Assembly: GCA_021817225.1 (NCBI GenBank)
Contig: JAKAVR010000002.1
Location: forward strand, 17,240 to 81,239
Direction: 5' to 3'
DNA length: 64,000 bases
Source: Thermoplasmata archaeon
GTDB lineage: Archaea; Thermoplasmatota; Thermoplasmata; Sysuiplasmatales; Sysuiplasmataceae
The translations under genes were made by a program, and so were the position numbers. Below, piece by piece: positions 10,599 through 49,228 of this stretch. Positions within the stretch are counted from its first letter, which is position 1, and the number at the start of each line of letters is the position of its first letter. The notes beneath the pieces were generated by a model. It was given only the letters and a program-made list of their open reading frames with translations, searched no databases and had not been told where the DNA came from.

Positions 10599-12067
<1,469 letters not shown>

Positions 12068-12429: not shown

Positions 12430-13923
12430 TTGTCATTCCGGGATGCACTTCAAATGAATGACTCTGCGAATTTCGCGGGCTATCAGGCTGACGACATTGA
12501 ATTCCTCGGCATTGTGTTCGGTCCTGTTGGAAGCTACGAGTTCAAGTTTGCTGTCACTGCTTCGGTAGAGAGGAACGAATATGTGCAGGTTCATCACGGC
12601 GCGTATGGTTGGCTCCTTGGCAGGGTGGATGAGGTGAGGCTCGAGACTGATCTGACGAGTGAAGGGGCCAAAAAAGTGGCAATGGGGGAGAGCGTGGCCT
12701 TCAGCGAAGAGGAGATTGCCCAGGCGACCATCGTTGGATACGCCGATGGCAAAGGAGGAATAGCGTCGCCTAAGCAACCTGTTGCTGCAGGAACCCGGGT
12801 ATACAGAGCGACAGACGAGACAATAGCCTCTGTACTTGGTCTTTCAAGCGAAGCGAACGGTGCGCGCATAGGAACGCTGCACGGAAGGGCACTCCCGGTG
12901 CAGATGGACATTGAGGCAATGGTGCAGAAACACATTTCCATAGTTGCAAAGACAGGGGGAGGGAAAAGCTACCTGGCCGGCGTTCTGATGGAGGAAATGC
13001 TTAAGCATTCGGTTACAACACTTGTACTCGACCCACACGGCGAATACGGCTCACTAAGGGATGCGGAGGGAAACGGTGGCCAGAAAAGTGCGTTTGCATC
13101 TGAAGTGATAGAATTTGCAACCGATGTGGAAGTCAATGCCGCAGCCCAGCCATTGCGCTTCACATGCTCAAACTTCAGTGCGTCGGAGCTTCTTTCACTG
13201 ACGGGCATGGCTGAAAACAGGGGGGCGATTTCGGCCCTGACTGTCTGTCTTGAGAGGGTGAAGGAGAAGGGGCAGGATTATGTTATACAGGACATAATAA
13301 CTGAAATGGAGGAAGGCGACAACCCGCTGCTGTCTCAGCTGAGGAAGGAGCTTGGCGTGATTTCTGCAATGAATATTTTTTCCGAACACGGGACGAGAAC
13401 GGATCAGATTGCCAACCCCGGAAAAACAACGATAATAAACTTCAAGGGAGCGACCCCGGAAGTGCAGGGACTGTTCGCAAGAAGGCTTCTTACTGCCCTG
13501 TTTGAGCAGAGGAAGAGGGGAAAGATCCCGCCCCTCCTGGTCGTGCTCGAGGAGGCACACAACTTCTGTCCACAGCAGGGGAAGACAGAGGCGAGCAGGA
13601 TAATAAGAACAATAGCCGCGGAGGGAAGGAAGTTCGGATTGTGGATCATGGTGATTACACAAAGGGCTGCGAAGGTGGACAAGAATGTGCTCAGTCAATG
13701 CAATACGCAGTTCATCCTGAAGCTCACAAACGTCAACGACATCAAAGCTGTGGCATCCTCGGTGGAGGGGATGACAGCAGAGATGCTCCAGGAAATACCC
13801 AGGCTGCAGACAGGCGTTGCAATAGCAATCGGCGGCGGTCTTCCCGTTCCGCTGCTGGTGGATGTGAGGAAGAGGCTGACACGCCACGGGGGCGAAAGCG
13901 TCGGCACTTTATGGAGGAAGTAA
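12430..13923 (+). CDS. HerA-like (DUF87) ATPase/helicase paralog
   Basis: HAS-barrel-like N-terminus. Walker A IVAKTGGGKSY, the HerA hallmark LVLDPHGEY, Walker B LLVVLEEAHNF, and ITQRAAKV. No NurA, Mre11 or Rad50 nearby. Confidence 0.65.
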   Translation: MSFRDALQMNDSANFAGYQADDIEFLGIVFGPVGSYEFKFAVTASVERNEYVQVHHGAYGWLLGRVDEVRLETDLTSEGAKKVAMGESVAFSEEEIAQATIVGYADGKGGIASPKQPVAAGTRVYRATDETIASVLGLSSEANGARIGTLHGRALPVQMDIEAMVQKHISIVAKTGGGKSYLAGVLMEEMLKHSVTTLVLDPHGEYGSLRDAEGNGGQKSAFASEVIEFATDVEVNAAAQPLRFTCSNFSASELLSLTGMAENRGAISALTVCLERVKEKGQDYVIQDIITEMEEGDNPLLSQLRKELGVISAMNIFSEHGTRTDQIANPGKTTIINFKGATPEVQGLFARRLLTALFEQRKRGKIPPLLVVLEEAHNFCPQQGKTEASRIIRTIAAEGRKFGLWIMVITQRAAKVDKNVLSQCNTQFILKLTNVNDIKAVASSVEGMTAEMLQEIPRLQTGVAIAIGGGLPVPLLVDVRKRLTRHGGESVGTLWRK

Positions 13924-39169: not shown

Positions 39170-39514
39170 ATGCAACCTTTTGAAGCAATGCAGTTGATGA
39201 CGGACGAATATGCCGTAAAAATACTAGTTGGGACAATGAGGAAGCCGAGGACAGCAATAGACCTCTCAGAGCTTTTTGGAATACCAATAGCTGCCTGTTA
39301 CAGGAAGATTCGACTTCTCGAGGAAATGGGCCTGATAACTTGCATAGAGAGAAAGCTTACCCGCGAAGGGAAAAGAATAAGCGTCTACCAGTCGCAGCTC
39401 AAGAATGCCTACATGTCTTTTGAAGACGGAAGGATGAGGGTTCGATTCGAGCTTGCGAATGGAGTTGTCCAGGACTCGGGCGACCAGAGTCTTATCACGA
39501 CTATCACGGTCTAG
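39170..39514 (+). CDS. ArsR-type winged-helix transcriptional regulator
   Basis: RTAIDLSELFGIPIAACYRKIRLLEEMGLI is a classic ArsR/SmtB helix-turn-helix. Confidence 0.5.
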   Translation: MQPFEAMQLMTDEYAVKILVGTMRKPRTAIDLSELFGIPIAACYRKIRLLEEMGLITCIERKLTREGKRISVYQSQLKNAYMSFEDGRMRVRFELANGVVQDSGDQSLITTITV

Positions 39515-42150: not shown

Positions 42151-42888
42151 TCAGAGAGCTTTTGCCTTGAGTTCCGACTGAATCTGCTTCAGCTCGTATG
42201 AACTGCTCGATTTGTTCACGTAATCGGCAATCGCGTTCCGGATGAGATAAGGATGCTTGACGCCGTAAAAGCACTCGCTTGGAAGAGCCCTCGGAACATC
42301 TGTTCCCTTGACCGATACGGATCCGCTCATCTTCTCCTGCCCCGAGACATTCATGCCTGTCCCCAGGCCCGCGGCAGTTATTGGCACCACATTGCCGAAT
42401 GAGAAAATTCGGCCCAGCACACTTACATGGACATCGACATCTACTATGTTTTCGTATCTCATATAGAGTTCATTGTAGGTCAGGAACTTTCTGATCATGG
42501 CTATCCTGAGGTTCGTGATATAATAACGGTAGGACCTCCTGTAGAATTCGGCGATGAGGAATGCGAGAATCCCGGCCCCGGCTGTAACGGATGCGAGAAA
42601 CACCACACTATTAGCCCTGAAAAAAGGAACGGATCGGAGCGCAAAGGATGACAGCACCACAAGGACAACTATGAAGCAAAAAGTGACCCAGTGCCTGTGC
42701 CTTCTCGTGAGGTATAACGAGAATATGCCCAGGAGGAAAGTCACTATGATCCAGAAGAACACTGCGCTGTTATTACTTGTTGAACCGAACAGAAATGTGA
42801 GGTACTGCGACGCGTAATTGATATCATGCTGGAGGTGTGACTGCCAGTACGCTGTCCCCACAAATGCGTAGTATATCGCCCCCCACAA
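42151..42888 (-). CDS. membrane protein with a bacterial-type PH domain (bPH_2, YdbT/DUF304-like)
   Basis: N-terminal TM helices, then YYITNLRIAMIRKFLTYNELYMRYENIVDVDVHVSVLGRIFSFGNV, which is bPH_2-like. It has its own TATATAAG-containing upstream region (about 43005-43020). Confidence 0.5.
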   Translation of the reverse strand: MWGAIYYAFVGTAYWQSHLQHDINYASQYLTFLFGSTSNNSAVFFWIIVTFLLGIFSLYLTRRHRHWVTFCFIVVLVVLSSFALRSVPFFRANSVVFLASVTAGAGILAFLIAEFYRRSYRYYITNLRIAMIRKFLTYNELYMRYENIVDVDVHVSVLGRIFSFGNVVPITAAGLGTGMNVSGQEKMSGSVSVKGTDVPRALPSECFYGVKHPYLIRNAIADYVNKSSSSYELKQIQSELKAKAL

Positions 42889-43144: not shown

Positions 43145-43600
43145 TCAGGAGCCAAGCACAATTGATAACCTTCTCAGCTTGCTCCGTATGTTTCTATCTA
43201 GTCTGACGAATTGCCAGCGCATTAGCACCCTGCCATATCTAGATACGAAGCTGACGCTGCATGTTCTCATCAATCTGTCATAAGTGCGAGTCTCGATTCT
43301 GAGTCCTGAAACATAATCGAGGCTGATGCTCTTTCCCCTGAGCAGCACGCTGCTCGTGACGCGACTGTCGGAAACTGCATATTTCGTGCCCAACCACACA
43401 GCCACCGGAAACAAGAACACAACGCAGCAGACCATCCATTCGGCAGGGCGCAGCAGGGATGGGAATGCAAGTCCGAATTCAGACACAACGCTGTTTACCA
43501 TCATAAACTGGAAACCAAAGAGAAGGGATAGAAGCAGCCCTGCAATCGCATAGGGACTCAAACATGGTCGTGCATGAATGTCATGGGCAACCTTCATCAC
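43145..43600 (-). CDS. small membrane protein with a bPH_2 domain (YdbS-like); last gene of the T4SS-like operon
   Basis: Two N-terminal TM helices, then YAVSDSRVTSSVLLRGKSISLDYVSGLRIETRTYDRLMRTCSVSF. Its start overlaps the stop of the upstream gene by 4 nt. Confidence 0.5.
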   Translation of the reverse strand: MMKVAHDIHARPCLSPYAIAGLLLSLLFGFQFMMVNSVVSEFGLAFPSLLRPAEWMVCCVVFLFPVAVWLGTKYAVSDSRVTSSVLLRGKSISLDYVSGLRIETRTYDRLMRTCSVSFVSRYGRVLMRWQFVRLDRNIRSKLRRLSIVLGS

Positions 43601-44289
43601 TTCTTCCCTCCTTCTCCCGCACAGTCTGCAGGCATATCCCGAATCAGTGTCCTCTCCTTTGCAAGAAGACCGGCAAGCATGCCCGCATTGAAGGAGAGGT
43701 CAACGAGAGATTTCATCGAATTTTCGACCGAAAAATCCTCAAGCGCTTTCCCGCAATCGCGCTCAATTCCCCCTTCGGTGTAATGCTTTGAGTCATCCAG
43801 CACAGAGCCGAGATGTATCGAGACCATATCCGCCCCCGGAATGAAATTCATTGAATCCATTTTTCCAAGCAGCCTCTCCGCTTCGTTCCTGTGCCTGTTG
43901 TACTCATCGGAAATTTCAGTCGTTCCGGAGTAATTGCCCCTGTCGAAGGAAACAGGAAGGGATAGCTGCACATTGCCGATCGCAGTAACGGAGGAGAAAG
44001 CCAATTGGCTCTTCTGCAGCGTGTCCAATTCCCCCTTGAGCCAACCGGACCAGAATGCGATCTCGATGAGCGTTGATGCTTGATCGTCGGCTGAGATGCC
44101 TGCGTTAGGCGGCGAATTATCCACAAGCCTGTGTCTTATCCTGTCGGCCCACCACATGTTGGAACCGTCACTGTCGCTCAGAATTGCCTCCGCTTCACTG
44201 ACCTCTGATTCCACCTCCTTCAGCCAGGTGGACAGCATTGATCCGAAGAAACTCATTCTCTTGCTGCAGTCAACTGGCAGCCGCTTCAT
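43597..44289 (-). CDS. hypothetical soluble protein (operon member)
   Basis: About 230 aa from the M at 44289 (an ATGA overlap with the VirB4-like stop). No recognisable motif and no TM helix. Confidence 0.4.
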   Translation of the reverse strand: MKRLPVDCSKRMSFFGSMLSTWLKEVESEVSEAEAILSDSDGSNMWWADRIRHRLVDNSPPNAGISADDQASTLIEIAFWSGWLKGELDTLQKSQLAFSSVTAIGNVQLSLPVSFDRGNYSGTTEISDEYNRHRNEAERLLGKMDSMNFIPGADMVSIHLGSVLDDSKHYTEGGIERDCGKALEDFSVENSMKSLVDLSFNAGMLAGLLAKERTLIRDMPADCAGEGGKK

Positions 44290-45989
44290 GCATGCATCGC
44301 CTCCCCGATTAGGCAGACGGCTTCGTCCAACTTCGAAATGGCCATGATACTCATCAGGGCTGAGGGCGTCACCGGTAGCTTTGGTTCGGAGTTGCACACT
44401 TCCCTTTCCTCATCACTGCAGTGAACAATGAGGGGTACCTTCATGCCGGAAGTGACGAGGATGCACTTTCCGACGCCTTCTGTCCTCGGGTGTGAGGAGG
44501 CAATAAACTCCAAATCGCCGTCATTAAGCTCAAAGAACGATCGCATTCTCATGCTCAGTTTTTCATGGCGGAAGACAAAGAAATGGCTGCAGTTGTTCAG
44601 CAGACCGCCGTCCGGGTCCTGACTCAGAAAATCATCGAAATTCTGCGAAGCAAGCAGGACGCTCAACCCATAATGGCGTGAATGCCTCATTAGCTCGGAA
44701 ACGAAGGCGGATGATGCGGGACTCCTTGAAACTGTCCAGGCCTCGTCGAGAACGAGAGTCTTCCTGCCATGGGCCCTTCTGCACAACTCGAATACAAGGC
44801 CAGAAACGAGGCAGATGACATCTTCAAGCATTCCCTTGCTGACAGAACCCATGTCAAAGACAATATGGCCGCCGTTTCCGGAAAGAACGCATTTTCCTTC
44901 AAGCAGGAAGGACATCCTGGAAATGTCCGCCATGTTGCCCCCAAATGAGAGCTCTGCATCATGCAGGTGAGGCAGCGCTTCGAAGAATGAAGATAGGTAC
45001 TGTTCAGAATTGTCGGTCGCATACTTAGTGAGCAGTTGCCTGAATACGACTCCTTCCCTTTCAGTCAGCTTGAAAATACTCTGGACAAAGCGAGTCAGGT
45101 AATGGGCGAATGTAATTGCTTCTGACATTTTGAGCGAGCCGAGGCCAAGACCCTCATGAAAGACGTTGACTACCTCAGCACCCGACTGGAGGCCAACAGC
45201 AAAAAACTCACCCAGGGGATCGATTACGAATATTCTGTTTGACGCGAAGCCTGACTCCCTCAGCATTAACAGCTTCATGAAAAAACTCTTGCCGCTTCCG
45301 CTCTTGCCGATTACGACCGAATTGTAGTTCGGGGTCGAAAAACGATCATGGACAACCGGAGTGCCATCTATTGCATTACAGCCAACGGGAACGCCCATCT
45401 CCTGCAACAAGGGGGACTGGGTGAAAGGAACCAGGGCGGGAAGGGATGAAGTGCTCACAATCGGGCATCTGTCGAAGGAGGGAACAGTTCCTGGAGAAAA
45501 ATCGGCCAATACCTTGAACTGCAGATACTTCAGCCTTGAGTAACGGACGGAAAAGGCCTTCAGCTCGCTCGTAAGCAATTCCGTCCGTTCCCTTAACTCC
45601 GAGCCTGTCTCGGCAACAACCGCAAAAAGAAGAGATGCATAGAAGAGCCTCGTCCTGTCTGATCGCAGCTCAGAAAGGAGCTGCCTCCCGAGTTCAAGCC
45701 TCGTCTCCTGGTAATCTGCCGTTCTGCCTGCGTTCACCCTGTCGAGAATCTCAGCCGACAGGTTGAGCGTGGACCTTTCTACCATTAAAATGGATCTCTC
45801 TTTTGAAATCTGGAAAAGGGACACTGATGCACCCAGGAAAGGAAGACGCAGGAGCATATCCGACAGCCAGTCTGAGGGAAGATTGAACGGAAATCCTGTC
45901 ACAAAGATGAAGGTGATCCGCCTCTTTCCGATATCCGCCCTTTCAATCCCGTTTGCGCTCCGGTGACGATTGTGGAACACAAGATTCAC
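44286..45989 (-). CDS. VirB4/TrbE/CedB-like conjugation-type ATPase
   Basis: Walker A VVIGKSGSGKSFFMKLL, the motif FVIDPLGEF, and Walker B TLVLDEAWTV (the DEAW hallmark of VirB4/AAA_10), then LLASQNFDDF. About 250 aa of N-terminal non-ATPase domain; 567 aa, as in archaeal CedB. Confidence 0.65.
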   Translation of the reverse strand: MNLVFHNRHRSANGIERADIGKRRITFIFVTGFPFNLPSDWLSDMLLRLPFLGASVSLFQISKERSILMVERSTLNLSAEILDRVNAGRTADYQETRLELGRQLLSELRSDRTRLFYASLLFAVVAETGSELRERTELLTSELKAFSVRYSRLKYLQFKVLADFSPGTVPSFDRCPIVSTSSLPALVPFTQSPLLQEMGVPVGCNAIDGTPVVHDRFSTPNYNSVVIGKSGSGKSFFMKLLMLRESGFASNRIFVIDPLGEFFAVGLQSGAEVVNVFHEGLGLGSLKMSEAITFAHYLTRFVQSIFKLTEREGVVFRQLLTKYATDNSEQYLSSFFEALPHLHDAELSFGGNMADISRMSFLLEGKCVLSGNGGHIVFDMGSVSKGMLEDVICLVSGLVFELCRRAHGRKTLVLDEAWTVSRSPASSAFVSELMRHSRHYGLSVLLASQNFDDFLSQDPDGGLLNNCSHFFVFRHEKLSMRMRSFFELNDGDLEFIASSHPRTEGVGKCILVTSGMKVPLIVHCSDEEREVCNSEPKLPVTPSALMSIMAISKLDEAVCLIGEAMHA

Positions 45990-46636
45990 TGCATCACCCT
46001 CTGTAGAAGCATTGAGTCCACGAGCGGATGGACAGACGACGGGTCACACAATGGAGTGGTGTCTGATGCCGTACCTCCGATGAATGCTGGCGGTGCCTGG
46101 CCCTCCCGCGTCGAGAGATAGAATGAGCGAAGGCCGGCAGTTTCGCTTCCGGAAAGCTGCACATTCATATCGCCTGGGACGCCGTCATCAATTCCCGGGA
46201 TTGCCAGGAAGCGGATGCACCCCCGTGCGGACAAACAGAAGGATAGGAACGAATCAAGAAAAGTTTCCTTTTCCGCCTTCAGGGCGCATGCATAGTTGAC
46301 ATTGTCAAGCCTATACACAGACATGGTCAAGTCCACGGACCGTATTGACCTGCCAATCTCGTGCTTCGGGTTCCTTCCGACAAGCCTGTATTCAAGGAAA
46401 GCACTGAACAATTCGAAAGGGTGTTCGCCCCTCCGTTCGTGGATTACAAGGACCAAGGAAGCAGCCTGGAGAATAGGGGCAACGATGCAGGCGGCGATAT
46501 GAGATATCTCGTAGACAAGAAAGTCCAGCGGCAGGCAGGCTGTGAGCGTAAGGCACTCGACCGCTGTGAACGGGCCAAGAACGGCTGGAGAGTATGAGGT
46601 GGCCGCAGGAAAGCTGCACTCAGCTTGCATCTTCAT
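45986..46636 (-). CDS. hypothetical N-terminally membrane-anchored protein (VirB3/VirB8-position gene)
   Basis: 216 aa with one or two N-terminal hydrophobic helices, then a soluble domain. It overlaps the VirB4-like start by 4 nt. Confidence 0.35.
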   Translation of the reverse strand: MKMQAECSFPAATSYSPAVLGPFTAVECLTLTACLPLDFLVYEISHIAACIVAPILQAASLVLVIHERRGEHPFELFSAFLEYRLVGRNPKHEIGRSIRSVDLTMSVYRLDNVNYACALKAEKETFLDSFLSFCLSARGCIRFLAIPGIDDGVPGDMNVQLSGSETAGLRSFYLSTREGQAPPAFIGGTASDTTPLCDPSSVHPLVDSMLLQRVMQ

Positions 46637-47756
46637 TCACCCCCACGTATATCTTATGATGGCGCGATTTCGGGGCAGAGCGAAGTAATGCAGGATGTTT
46701 TGGAAAAACAGTCGCAGATGCTGGTGCAATCCTACCGCTTCCATGCCTTCCTGCCCTTGCTGTTGTTCCGAGAAATTTCCCAGCTACAGCTCTTCCGTGA
46801 GAGGTCCCTGTATTGAAGCTCCTCACCGTCTTATGCATGGATGGTCTCATGGCACCGTGCAGGCTGCCTCCCCTTGCATTTGTATGACCGGCCGGTCTCT
46901 GAGACGTCCGGAAGGGTGAGACGAGGAAACCGGCGGTGTAGGAGGCCAGACCGGCAGATGCGAAGGAGGCAGTCGTCAGCACAGTGGCTATAGTCGGCAT
47001 GCCGAAATACTGCATTATCCTGCTTCCTGCAGGAGATATTATGAAGGGCACGAAAAGAGGCAGGAGAAAAGTGCCGGCAATTATCAAAGGAGGCACCTGG
47101 AGTGAACTGAATGTTGAGTATGAAGTGACTATCCCGATCCTCAGGCCGACAGCCATGAAGAAGGGAAGGAATGCCATTTCTGCGAACAATCCCAATATTC
47201 GCCTTGAGAAGGGCCTGGTTGCACTGATTGACTCGCAAAGAAGAGCCAGCGGAAGCAATGCGGCCGTGAAGAAGACAAGAAGAGTCCTGAGAATCAGGAC
47301 CAGGTAAAGCAGCAGTGACGCTATCCCTATCAGAGCGATGGCACCAACGCTGTATCCGCCGAGGCCGGATGCCACCATGTTTGAGTAGCCGGATAGCTGA
47401 TTGTACGGAAGAACGAATGACGTCAGTGCGTCGTTGACATCCAGTGTCAGCTGAGCAAAATAGAGTGAAAAGGGCATTAGCACGACGGCGACAAGCAATC
47501 TTGAGAGCTGTCTGGAAGTCCCTGATCTGCCGTGAATAGGGACGCCGGTGAAAAGCGAGTAAGCAATAAGGGCTATCGCGATTGAGACAAGAGACTCCGA
47601 AATAAAGAGCACTGCCTCCCAGGCGCTGTAGGTCCCATTTGAAAAGAGTCCAGTGCTTACTGTCATTGCAGGAACTATGGCCTTCAGAATCGCAAGTATG
47701 CCGTTCTGGAAAAGGCCGTCAAAGGCCTGTGTAATCATTGAATCTATGCCTGACAT
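46620..47756 (-). CDS. polytopic membrane protein, VirB6/TrbL/CedA-like
   Basis: 378 aa with about 6-7 TM helices. A roughly 100-aa C-terminal low-complexity basic tail (RPAGHTNARGG...RHHK) resembles TrbL/VirB6 proteins. Its position between the pilin and VirB4 genes fits. Confidence 0.45.
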   Translation of the reverse strand: MSGIDSMITQAFDGLFQNGILAILKAIVPAMTVSTGLFSNGTYSAWEAVLFISESLVSIAIALIAYSLFTGVPIHGRSGTSRQLSRLLVAVVLMPFSLYFAQLTLDVNDALTSFVLPYNQLSGYSNMVASGLGGYSVGAIALIGIASLLLYLVLILRTLLVFFTAALLPLALLCESISATRPFSRRILGLFAEMAFLPFFMAVGLRIGIVTSYSTFSSLQVPPLIIAGTFLLPLFVPFIISPAGSRIMQYFGMPTIATVLTTASFASAGLASYTAGFLVSPFRTSQRPAGHTNARGGSLHGAMRPSMHKTVRSFNTGTSHGRAVAGKFLGTTARAGRHGSGRIAPASATVFPKHPALLRSAPKSRHHKIYVGVNEDAS

Positions 47757-47765
47757 GATAACAAC

Positions 47766-47870
47766 TCACGGGACAAGCGATTCTTCCACGAAGACTGCAA
47801 TTCTGTAGAGCACCAGCGCAAGGAGACTGCCAACGGCAACAACGAAAACAATGAGTGCTTTGCTTTCCAT
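47766..47870 (-). CDS. 34-aa single-TM peptide (not in the ORF track)
   Basis: Hand translation gives MESKALIVFVVAVGSLLALVLYRIAVFVEESLVP. It lies 2 nt after the pilin gene's stop and 9 nt before the VirB6-like start. Confidence 0.3.
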   Translation of the reverse strand: MESKALIVFVVAVGSLLALVLYRIAVFVEESLVP

Positions 47871-47872
47871 CC

Positions 47873-48223
47873 CTACACCACCAGAGACTGAGCGAGTTGC
47901 ACAAGAAACGAGGAGATGAAGAGCAGGAATATTCCGAATGTGACATCCATGAAGTACTTCCTAGCCTTCGATCTTGTTTCAGGATTTCCTGTGCTTGTCA
48001 TCCACATGTACGCGGTGACAATGTATCCTATCGCCGCAACTATAGTGCCCAGAGCCACCAGGAGATTCCTAACGTTCGTGAGTGTATTTGTGAGTTCCTG
48101 CTGCGGTGTGGCCGCTGCCGCCACGACTCCCGAAGTTGCCACAAGCGTCGCCATCAGCACAACAGGAAGACAGTATCCTGCACAAGCCCACTTTCCAAAG
48201 TGCGATTTGTTTCTTTCATTCAT
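47873..48223 (-). CDS. VirB2/TrbC-like conjugative pilin precursor (CedA1/TedC-like)
   Basis: 116 aa. Sec-type signal peptide with an AAA|TPQQ SPase I site. The roughly 78-aa mature part has two hydrophobic helices separated by a short basic loop (TSTGNPETRSKARKY). First gene of the operon. Confidence 0.45.
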   Translation of the reverse strand: MNERNKSHFGKWACAGYCLPVVLMATLVATSGVVAAAATPQQELTNTLTNVRNLLVALGTIVAAIGYIVTAYMWMTSTGNPETRSKARKYFMDVTFGIFLLFISSFLVQLAQSLVV

Positions 48224-48343
48224 CTGCTCACCATCCCCGCCACAAACCAGAAAATCTGACCTGTGCCGGAACGATTATTGGACCTGCTGTTCTAATTAAA
48301 AAGCCTGACTGATACATGTAACAGGTTAACAACTTTTTTCGGC

Positions 48344-49228
48344 TTGTCCCATGAAAACTGTTTATCCAAGTTTGGCCTAGCTATCACCCTGATGAACATC
48401 GAATTCAGGAAGATGGACAGGGGCGACATTGGATATGCGATCGAGGTGACAAACTCTGAAAGCTGGTATCTCACAGAATACGATCTGGCGTTCTACCTTA
48501 ACCCTGAGAACGGGATAGGAGTAATGGCCATCCTGGACGGCAGCAGGGTGGGGCTGGCAACGGCCGCGATATACGGCGAGACGGCATGGATAGGCAATGT
48601 GGTCATAGAAGCGGAGAAGAGAAGTTCAGGAATAGGGAGACTGCTTGTGGAGCAACTGCTCTCGGAATTGAAGAACCGCGGCGTGGTCACAACCTTCCTC
48701 TATGCGTATGACAGGAGCAAGTCCCTGTATGTAAGGCTGGGTTTCACCTTCGACAGGGTTTTGTGGGAGGTCAAGGTTGAAAAACCATTGACTGGAACCA
48801 TGGCCCGGTTAGAAAGAGGACTCACTGCAGGCATTGATGAATTTGACAGGCTCTTTTTCAGACGGTCGAGGATGAGAGTCCTGAGGCATGTGGCAGGCAG
48901 GGAAGGGTGCATTGTGCTTTCGAGCACCGACAGCAGGAAGCAGCCGAATGGTTATCTTGTATGCAGCCCGACCGAATCTGAATATGGATCGGAAATTGCG
49001 CCCTTCATAGCCGAGAGGAACAATGCAGTGCAGCTGCTATCTGCCCTCGAGAATGCACCGGCCCCCTTCCATCTCTACATACCTGAAGAAAACATGACAA
49101 TTCTGAAGGAGCTCGGCTTGAGGCATGAACTTGTGAGGAGGATCCACAGAGGTTTTTTAGGAGACGGAAGACAGGCGCCGATTCTTGACGAACACATACT
49201 GTCCGCAGGATTTCTCGAGTCTGGATGA
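48344..49228 (+). CDS. GNAT-family N-acetyltransferase
   Basis: Acetyl-CoA binding motif RSSGIGRLLVEQLL and a GNAT beta core. The start may be the M at 48395. Confidence 0.6.
   Translation: MSHENCLSKFGLAITLMNIEFRKMDRGDIGYAIEVTNSESWYLTEYDLAFYLNPENGIGVMAILDGSRVGLATAAIYGETAWIGNVVIEAEKRSSGIGRLLVEQLLSELKNRGVVTTFLYAYDRSKSLYVRLGFTFDRVLWEVKVEKPLTGTMARLERGLTAGIDEFDRLFFRRSRMRVLRHVAGREGCIVLSSTDSRKQPNGYLVCSPTESEYGSEIAPFIAERNNAVQLLSALENAPAPFHLYIPEENMTILKELGLRHELVRRIHRGFLGDGRQAPILDEHILSAGFLESG

Follow-up and report, generated by a model that had tools for sequence, protein, structure and literature searches.

A chromosomally fixed operon related to type IV secretion systems, with an apparently split VirB4, in an uncultured Thermoplasmata lineage

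The window analysed here is a stretch of 64,000 nucleotides (nt) of contig JAKAVR010000002.1 from an uncultured Thermoplasmata lineage that is related to Candidatus (Ca.) Sysuiplasmatales. It contains seven consecutive minus-strand open reading frames (ORFs) at 43145-48223, which an initial annotation had described as a seven-gene operon for a minimal DNA-transfer apparatus resembling type IV secretion systems (T4SS), and an eighth ORF at 42151-42888. All of these ORFs were confirmed, and the operon very probably encodes a membrane machine that is derived from a T4SS. The features of the locus are as follows (window coordinates; lengths in amino acids, aa; TM, transmembrane):

48224..48343 (no strand): presumed operon promoter region, the 120 nt that separate the divergent pilin and GNAT genes
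47873..48223 (minus): VirB2/TrbC-type pilin precursor, 116 aa, by matches to Pfam TrbC and T4SS_pilin
47766..47870 (minus): single-pass membrane peptide, 34 aa, by conservation of position and motif
46620..47756 (minus): VirB6/TrbL-like polytopic membrane protein, 378 aa, by TrbL/TrbL_3 family matches and TM count
45986..46636 (minus): putative VirB4 N-terminal module (p216), 216 aa, by its natural fusion in the loci L100 and L101
44286..45989 (minus): VirB4-family ATPase, 567 aa, by profile matches in NCBIfam, Pfam and the PDB
43597..44289 (minus): p230, an acidic, soluble, predicted all-alpha protein, 230 aa, a clade-restricted orphan
43145..43600 (minus): p151, two N-terminal TM segments and a C-terminal domain of about 80 aa, 151 aa, by hydropathy and position
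42151..42888 (minus): bPH_2-domain membrane protein, 245 aa, by Pfam bPH_2

The tight operon spans 48223 to 43145. The pilin and peptide genes are separated by 2 nt and the peptide and VirB6-like genes by 9 nt, the final 17 nt of the VirB6-like gene lie within the start of the p216 gene, and 4-nt overlaps (GTGA/ATGA) occur at p216/ATPase, ATPase/p230 and p230/p151. The spacing originally described, 2-9 nt spacers or 4-nt overlaps, is therefore correct for the other junctions of the operon, but not for that between the VirB6-like gene and p216. An AT-rich spacer of 256 nt separates p151 from the bPH_2 gene, which, because of this spacer, probably has its own promoter. In the presumed promoter region of the operon, direct reading of the sequence reveals a TTTTAATT element, which precedes the pilin ATG by about 60 nt, and GGTGA immediately before this ATG. 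The gene order, including the 34-aa peptide, is kept in six diverged lineages, and the ratios of nonsynonymous to synonymous substitution rates (dN/dS) are 0.05-0.40, so that the ORFs of the operon are real genes and not chance ORFs. The GC content shows no anomaly across the block.

The 116-aa protein, which had been proposed to be of the VirB2/TrbC type, scored above the curated gathering scores of two Pfam families of T4SS pilins, that is TrbC/VirB2 (PF04956; E = 5.1e-9, 36.7 bits versus a gathering score of 27.9) and T4SS_pilin (PF18895; E = 3.9e-8, 33.7 bits versus 26.6). The proposed architecture, a signal followed by two hydrophobic helices around a basic loop, is likewise borne out by hydropathy and by a structural model: a basic N-region, a signal-peptide helix and an A-rich cleavage region precede two hydrophobic helices, and the basic loop between them carries the conserved motif GNPE.R.KAR. 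The hydropathy peaks are at residues 13-31, 54-72 and 98-116, and a single-sequence AlphaFold2 (AF2) model has helices at residues 4-30, 40-76 and 81-115, with a predicted local distance difference test score (pLDDT) of 72-79 for the mature part. The A-rich cleavage region and the loop are kept in six lineages, and the signal is putatively cleavable. The identity of the pilin across lineages is 69-84%, and it is more conserved than cysS, topA and most flanking housekeeping proteins.

The 378-aa protein had been described as polytopic, with a long basic tail. It has seven hydropathy peak windows, two of which overlap, corresponding to about six to seven TM segments, and its basic low-complexity tail of about 93 aa (window 46620-46900, minus strand) contains 23 K/R/H versus 2 D/E and closes in an HKIY/HRIY motif that is kept in six of six lineages. 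The likeness to VirB6/TrbL is supported by a precomputed Pfam record of TrbL_3 (PF19590), which exists for the exact protein of the window and for orthologues, and by matches of four of the seven family members to TrbL (PF04610), the best of which (E = 9.6e-5, 22.7 bits) is below the gathering score of 25.9; a direct Pfam scan of the window copy itself yielded no match, and a search of PDB sequences with the family profile yielded nothing. The gene is located one gene upstream of the VirB4 module in six of six lineages, and its dN/dS is 0.05. Between the pilin and the VirB6-like genes, a TM peptide of 32-37 aa is encoded in six of six lineages, with the shared motif Y-R-x-A-V-F-[VL]-E-[ED]-R-L. 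In the window this is the 34-aa single-TM peptide that had been noted before; the dN/dS of its gene is 0.11, it matches no family in Pfam or NCBIfam, and it might be a lineage-specific subunit of the machine.

The 567-aa protein is best matched by VirB4 models. In NCBIfam, the CD1110 VirB4-like model (1.1e-30) and the VirB4 of Mycoplasma integrative and conjugative elements (ICEs) (VirB4_plasma, 1.6e-29) are followed by TraC (1e-15), VirB4_CagE (4e-15) and CedB (2.8e-13), and HerA_antiphage (0.15) and VirD4-like (0.027) are insignificant. The Pfam matches are AAA_10, P-loop_TraG and DUF87, and a search of PHROGs resulted only in a generic P-loop match to terminase. With the family profile, the best PDB match is the VirB4 C-terminal domain 4AG5 (1.9e-23), far ahead of HerA (2e-7), in agreement with the assignment to VirB4 rather than to the HerA/FtsK ATPases. 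The motifs GKSGSGKS, DPLGEF and DEAW, which had been singled out from the sequence, as well as RH.RHY...SQN, are invariant in 12 of 12 family members. Because all scores are far below the equivalog cut-offs, the protein represents a divergent branch of the VirB4 family and the equivalog of no named one. Its nearest outgroup relatives are ATPases of other Thermoplasmata (L017, L095-L097; proteins P0013-P0018), with 26-27% identity and E-values of 1e-47 to 7e-54, and the closest relatives after these are VirB4 proteins of Patescibacteria, with 22-26% identity and about 95 bits.

Residues 21-277 of the ATPase align with positions 207-471 of the CD1110 model, and the protein aligns with residues 325-849 of the Thermoplasmata VirB4 P0014, which has 859 aa. 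As this alignment begins at residue 325, the ATPase lacks the first approximately 320 residues of a full VirB3-VirB4 fusion. The p216 gene is located exactly where the missing residues would be encoded, and its product consists of a conserved N-terminal motif, a VirB3/PrgI-like TM hairpin (residues ~23-65) and a soluble part of about 150 aa. The decisive observation was made in a sister lineage that shares the synteny and is represented by two independent assemblies (L100, on a JGI contig of 128.7 kb, and L101): here, the p216 profile (E = 1e-11) and the ATPase profile (E = 3e-117) match a single ORF without interruption. Pairwise alignment of p216 with the fused N-termini of L100/L101 gave an E-value of 2e-5, and the fused N-terminus of L100 is in turn collinear with the PrgI-bearing N-terminus of the 859-aa VirB4 (E = 0.02). 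The N-terminal motif of p216 resembles that of the fused VirB4 proteins and is collinear with it at weak E-values of 0.02-0.33. The Pfam family PrgI was matched by one p216 orthologue only, that of L007 (E = 0.12), and faintly by the outgroup fusion P0017; an hhalign comparison of the p216 family with the fused VirB4 N-termini picked the segment expected by eye, without reaching significance (E = 0.35).

Because p216 and the ATPase are one ORF in L100/L101, p216 appears to be a detached piece of VirB4, comprising a VirB3-like membrane hairpin and the start of the VirB4 N-domain, and the split form probably arose by fission of VirB4. The split junction, at which stop and start overlap or are a few nt apart, is conserved in five lineages and is therefore not an assembly error. 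The suggestion that this protein occupies the 'VirB3/VirB8 position' was thus right with respect to VirB3, with the addition of the VirB4 N-terminus, but it is not a VirB8. The VirB4 N-domain is therefore present in this system, and according to the alignments and the fusion it would be divided between p216 and the ATPase.

Downstream of the ATPase the assignments are less specific. The p230 gene directly follows the ATPase gene in six of six lineages, in the window with a 4-nt overlap, and the protein carries the invariant motif TL-EIAFWSGWL-GE. A word index yielded only eight homologues, and all of the 15 matches of its profile among 1.84 billion representatives belong to its own family; distant relatives were absent from these representatives and from JGI metagenome contigs. 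An AF2 model from a nine-sequence alignment has seven helices at a low-confidence pLDDT of 54.6. The position of p151 is also kept in six of six lineages, with 25-46% identity. It had been described as a YdbS-like bPH_2 protein, which could not be upheld: Pfam bPH_2 (PF03703) matches the window copy with 12.9 bits and an E-value of 0.14, below the gathering score, and two orthologues that were scanned had no match. A paralogous relationship of p151 to the 245-aa bPH_2 protein was considered and rejected, because the hhalign E-value is 0.19 and extends over TM residues only. The p151, p230 and 34-aa proteins are candidates for new, lineage-specific T4SS subunits. The 245-aa protein encoded just beyond the operon does contain the bPH_2 domain that had been ascribed to it (E = 3.6e-7, 30.8 bits versus a cut-off of 22). 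It is adjacent in every lineage and 53-76% identical, a housekeeping-like rate; whether it belongs to the system is uncertain.

The history of the operon was traced by comparison across Thermoplasmatota. The exact ATPase sequence of the window is also present in the metagenome-assembled genome (MAG) GCA_027369515.1 at NCBI, and in strains that are 98% identical, contigs longer than 200 kb show this arrangement as well. Further MAGs with the operon are GCA_027314325.1 and GCA_019721095.1. A block with the order GNAT, pilin–peptide–VirB6–p216–VirB4–p230–p151, bPH_2, topA–PAN is found at the same locus in six lineages, flanked by GNAT, cysS, DUF835 and enolase on one side and by topA, a 114-aa winged-helix-turn-helix-like protein and PAN on the other. 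The lineages that share the block have ATPases that are 46%, 41%, 35% and 32% identical to that of the window, and they include 'Thermoplasmata archaeon TL1-5.bin102' and Ca. Sysuiplasma superficiale. In the most distant pairs the identity is 54% for cysS, 60-62% for topA and 61-65% for enolase, and none of the eight ORFs is disrupted in any lineage examined. The neighbour-joining tree of topA has three sub-clades, and the same three are recovered with the ATPase, with the VirB6-like protein and with the bPH_2 protein. In comparison to the 98% strain, the synonymous divergence (dS) is 0.03-0.13 for the operon and 0.06-0.08 for the flanks, and dN/dS is 0.05-0.13 for the pilin, peptide, VirB6-like and ATPase genes and 0.24-0.40 for p216, p230 and p151. 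Across lineages, the ATPase (31-46% identity), p216 (24-38%) and p151 (25-46%) evolve much faster than the pilin, and p216, p230 and p151 together have 24-54% identity. This rate contrast fits a packed filament subunit with rapidly adapting cytoplasmic and membrane partners.

The conserved locus, the congruence with topA, the flank-like dS and the housekeeping neighbours together show, at the level of sequence comparison, that the operon is resident, vertically inherited and chromosomally fixed, and the dN/dS values that it is under purifying selection. This agrees with the original view of a resident system rather than an integrated plasmid, which can now be extended out to Ca. Sysuiplasma.

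Pfam annotation extends over four parts of the window, at roughly 6-10, 12.4-37.3, 37.5-42 and 48.3-62 kb. Among the genes annotated there, we found no integrase, relaxase or insertion sequence (IS), and neither these genes nor the operon include a coupling protein (VirD4/TcpA) or a second ATPase that could act with the system. The whole 64-kb window is devoid of tRNA genes, att-like repeats within 36-52 kb are limited to chance-level matches, and no relatives of the ATPase were found in the viral contigs of IMG/VR. The lack of an integrase, relaxase, tRNA-flanked att site or IS nearby, as it had been stated initially, thus holds for the annotated parts. The same applies to the housekeeping flanks topA and cysS, around which further housekeeping genes were found; the annotated neighbours include DnaK/J, PolB, RadA, the thermosome, PAN, enolase, PntAB and exosome subunits. 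Within the data checked, similarity to VirB2 and VirB4 was therefore present and features of an ICE were absent.

Several further observations were made in the window and at related loci. The GNAT gene divergent from the pilin gene across the 120 nt encodes a two-domain acetyltransferase (window 48344-49228, plus strand); it still adjoins the pilin gene in L100 (L100:7050-7856), where cysS, DUF835 and enolase sit elsewhere, and it could be either a functional partner of the operon or a relic of synteny. Sysuiplasma-type loci contain an extra ORF of 124-147 aa between GNAT and the pilin gene (L007:7199-7642, L016:7311-7685), which has no Pfam match and is absent from the lineage of the window. 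The 114-aa winged-helix-like protein between PAN and topA (window 39170-39514, plus strand), for which no Pfam match is on record, is 94-100% identical between lineages whose topA reaches no more than 60-83%, and for a small putative regulator this degree of conservation is unusually high. The sole other HerA/FtsK-type ATPase among the annotated genes of the window is encoded 30 kb from the operon (12430-13923, plus strand) and has a weak match to the VirB4 profile. It was considered as a coupling protein and rejected, because it is an ordinary HerA helicase (HAS-barrel and DUF87); it adjoins the 16S gene, has Dfp and thymidylate kinase as neighbours, and is not part of a herA-nurA-mre11-rad50 operon. 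The complete archaeal 16S rRNA gene (window 10600-12067, minus strand) stands alone, with no 23S, 5S or tRNA gene in the 64 kb, and thus the rRNA genes appear to be unlinked in this genome.

A mechanism can be proposed from the parts. The VirB2-type pilin would be exported via Sec, extracted from the membrane and polymerised into a pilus of the conjugative type, which would be assembled at the VirB6-type polytopic channel. The VirB4 ATPase would power the assembly, its own N-terminal module, p216, would keep it at the membrane, and the 34-aa TM peptide, the cytoplasmic all-alpha p230 and the two-TM p151 would act as lineage-specific subunits. Because no relaxase, coupling protein or integrase was found in the operon or the checked flanks, the machine would not move a mobile element, but would most likely let cells of one species exchange chromosomal DNA, probably by import, like Ced and Ted. 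Pilus formation, the DNA cargo, the direction of transport and the roles of the orphan subunits are what we infer for this machine. Intercellular DNA exchange of the Ced/Ted type would be the best explanation, to which we give slightly better than even credence; it is favoured by the archaeal host, the chromosomal fixation, the trio of pilin, channel and ATPase, and the split VirB4. It should be noted that ComB of H. pylori is a T4SS derivative without relaxase and type IV coupling protein, and takes up DNA.

Several points weigh against DNA exchange or against parts of the assignment. The case for DNA as the cargo would be one of analogy, and the nearest VirB4 relatives outside of Thermoplasmata belong to T4SS of Patescibacteria that are suspected of non-conjugative roles. 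The NCBIfam VirB4 scores of the ATPase are far below the curated cut-offs (106.6 versus 325 and 55 versus 643), and the CedB model NF041017 yields 49.4 bits where 700 are required, which is less than the conjugative VirB4 models yield. The pilin profile recovered zero solved pilins among PDB sequences, and fold searches with its AF2 model returned generic helical bundles only and were uninformative. No function can be assigned to p230, which has no match in Pfam, NCBIfam or PHROG, or to p151, which could not be placed in a family. In addition, the negative result for relaxases and coupling proteins covers the annotated genes of the window and not the rest of the genome, and all sequences compared are derived from MAGs.

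The first of these points leads to an alternative that has to be taken seriously even though we regard it as rather unlikely, namely that the same machine serves a role other than DNA transport, as a contact or adhesion pilus or in the exchange of proteins or small molecules with other cells or a partner organism. It is the Patescibacteria VirB4 proteins that follow Thermoplasmata in similarity, many of their loci have ORFs for VirB2-like pilins upstream, and a non-DNA role is suspected for these chromosomal, relaxase-less T4SS (PMC12102498); furthermore, scans with Pfam, NCBIfam and PHROG revealed no recognisable DNA-binding or DNA-processing function in the operon. However, among archaeal chromosomal sets of VirB2, VirB6 and VirB4, function has been tested only for Ced and Ted, and both import DNA. 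The checked genes of the window are housekeeping or biosynthetic and give no hint of an epibiont or a parasite, although one window cannot settle this, and the operon has no linked genes that resemble effectors or toxins.

Far less probable is that the operon is the mating-pair-formation (MPF) module of an ICE or an integrated plasmid (MPF-FATA) that is still or was recently mobile. The similarity of VirB4 to conjugative monoderm models would be in accord with it, as would the distant relatives L017 and L095-97, which lie in a mobile-looking context (a 1128-aa NTPase, AbiEi and a DDE transposase), and archaeal conjugative elements are often without recognisable relaxases. In spite of this, an identical chromosomal position at 54-65% identity of housekeeping proteins, trees that are congruent with topA and an operon dS close to that of the flanks are at odds with mobility, as are the lack of integrase, IS, tRNA and att repeats in the window parts checked, the unremarkable GC content, the absence of a second ATPase or coupling protein from the operon, and the lack of relatives in viral or mobile-element contigs (IMG/VR), so that for the clade related to Sysuiplasmatales this explanation is effectively excluded. 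Least credible of all is a decaying remnant of an ancient element in which the split of VirB4 would be a disabling mutation: the split itself and the fast evolution of p216, p230 and p151, with their higher dN/dS, could be read in this way, but no lineage examined has a broken copy of any of the eight ORFs, five lineages share the split junction, every gene has a dN/dS well below 1 (0.05-0.13 for the pilin, VirB6-like and ATPase genes), the pilin is more conserved than cysS and topA, and the Walker motifs are invariant.

The operon is thus a domesticated archaeal T4SS and not categorically new. The nearest outgroup clusters, in other Thermoplasmata, look mobile and have a fused VirB4, which suggests that an element of this kind gave rise to the operon by domestication. 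Taken together with DNA exchange as the preferred function, a more far-reaching proposal can be made, which we put forward tentatively and hold to be somewhat less than evenly probable. It states that this is a third case, besides Ced and Ted, in which archaea independently domesticated a machine for DNA exchange, and the first such case outside of the Crenarchaeota, that the machine is fixed in an order-level clade (Sysuiplasmatales and relatives) and derived from a mobile Thermoplasmata T4SS with fused VirB3-VirB4, and that orphan subunits (p230, p151 and the 34-aa peptide) replace substrate handling by relaxase and coupling protein. If this were true, pilus-mediated exchange of chromosomal DNA for repair would be a recurrent archaeal invention and not a crenarchaeal peculiarity. 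A role is known for just two archaeal T4SS derivatives, Ced and Ted, which are both crenarchaeal (the 'C' in Ced); a VirB2/VirB6/VirB4 operon that is passed on vertically in Thermoplasmatota would demonstrate that archaea have domesticated conjugation machinery repeatedly. The operon is also a compact seven-gene candidate for DNA exchange in acidophiles that are wall-less or have an S-layer, and with the pilin and ATPase profiles one could screen the MAGs of Thermoplasmatota for carriers and see whether these have more homologous recombination.

Among the known systems, the best-scoring VirB4 models are those of the monoderm MPF-FATA T4SS (pCF10 PrgI/PrgJ/PrgH, the C. difficile CD1110 family, Mycoplasma ICE). 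These share the relationship of VirB3 (PrgI) and VirB4, including natural fusions, and the VirB6-like PrgH/TrbL, but they are borne by plasmids or ICEs, encode a relaxase and a coupling protein, in most cases together with a cell-wall hydrolase, and as a rule lack a VirB2 pilin; their mobile-element functions are all missing from the operon of the window. The T4SS of Patescibacteria, a group also called the candidate phyla radiation (CPR), are similar in that they are chromosomal, mostly relaxase-less and MPF-FATA-related, with a short VirB4 (~600 aa), VirB2-like pilins and separate PrgI/VirB3-like genes nearby, and they are suspected of being possibly not conjugative (PMC12102498). They differ in their bacterial, mostly epibiotic hosts and in having no counterpart of p230, p151 and the 34-aa peptide, and the identity of their VirB4 is low. 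In seven of the Patescibacteria loci (L022, L029, L030, L044, L058, L064, L076), one to three ORFs matching the pilin profile are found a few kb upstream of the short VirB4, and in a Saccharibacteria locus an ORF just upstream of VirB4 (L069:8804-9208) has a weak match to the p216 profile (E = 0.0012).

Within Thermoplasmata, T4SS had been called uncharacterised, which is correct, but they have not gone unseen. One sentence of the Cuniculiplasma genome paper lists CSP5_1185-1189 as 'type IV secretion components' (Golyshina et al. 2016, PMC5155288), comprising arCOG05340, arCOG04034 (VirB4), arCOG05369 and a membrane protein confined to Thermoplasmatales. By this published listing it is a small chromosomal cluster from the same class, Thermoplasmata, in which a VirB4 is accompanied by a multipass protein and small membrane proteins, but it was listed without pilin assignment, synteny or evolutionary analysis. 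This sentence was the only relevant passage found in the full-text literature on Thermoplasmatota or Methanomassiliicoccales together with VirB4 or T4SS, and Thermoplasmata systems are not mentioned in the structural paper on Ced and Ted (PMC9905601), a 2025 review of T4SS nomenclature or the Patescibacteria study (PMC12102498). The clusters of other Thermoplasmata MAGs (L017, L095-L097) have the order pilin, an extra 197-aa ORF, TrbL_3 and VirB4; they differ by a single VirB4 of 859 aa (PrgI, TraC_F_IV and AAA_10), by a variable context and by the lack of p230, p151 and the 34-aa peptide. In the outgroup clusters L095 (12580-15966), L096, L097 and L019 (3308-6748), the fused VirB4 is directly followed by a DUF87/STAND-like NTPase of about 1130 aa, behind which lie an AbiEi-family gene and then a DDE transposase. 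It is conceivable that this large NTPase acts as an unconventional coupling protein for a mobile element of archaea.

In the two functionally characterised archaeal systems, Ced and Ted, a domesticated set of VirB2, VirB6 and VirB4 serves to import DNA (PMC9905601). Ted of the Thermoproteales, with the pilin TedC, the VirB6-like TedA and the VirB4-like TedB (Beltran et al. 2023, PMC9905601), is likewise chromosomal and relaxase-less, and TedC has a cleavable N-terminal signal peptide, as predicted for the pilin described here. The comparison is one of published architecture, across Thermoproteota and Thermoplasmatota. In contrast to Ted, the Thermoplasmata genes form one tight contiguous operon with a split VirB4, and the accessory proteins are the 34-aa peptide, p230 and p151, without linkage to ParA, Rad50 or HerA. 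Ced of the Sulfolobales and Desulfurococcales (CedA, CedA1, CedA2, CedB, CedD/CedE; PMC9905601, PMC11868833) shares the core of pilin, VirB6-like and VirB4-clade proteins and has small membrane proteins in addition. The Thermoplasmata system is not an orthologue of Ced, since the score of the CedB model is only 49 bits at a cut-off of 700, and CedA1 was reported to be unprocessed, whereas the pilin of the window has a predicted signal peptide. A parallel is that in Ced the VirB4 N-domain is divided between CedB and CedD (PMC11868833), as it would be between p216 and the ATPase. However, the two halves of Ced are paralogous ATPases, whereas the N-terminal piece described here has no ATPase domain. 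New in the present system is p216 as a detached N-terminal module of VirB4 with a fused form in L100/L101, which would make it the second natural case of a split VirB4 N-domain, and one in which the fused and the split forms are both available for comparison.

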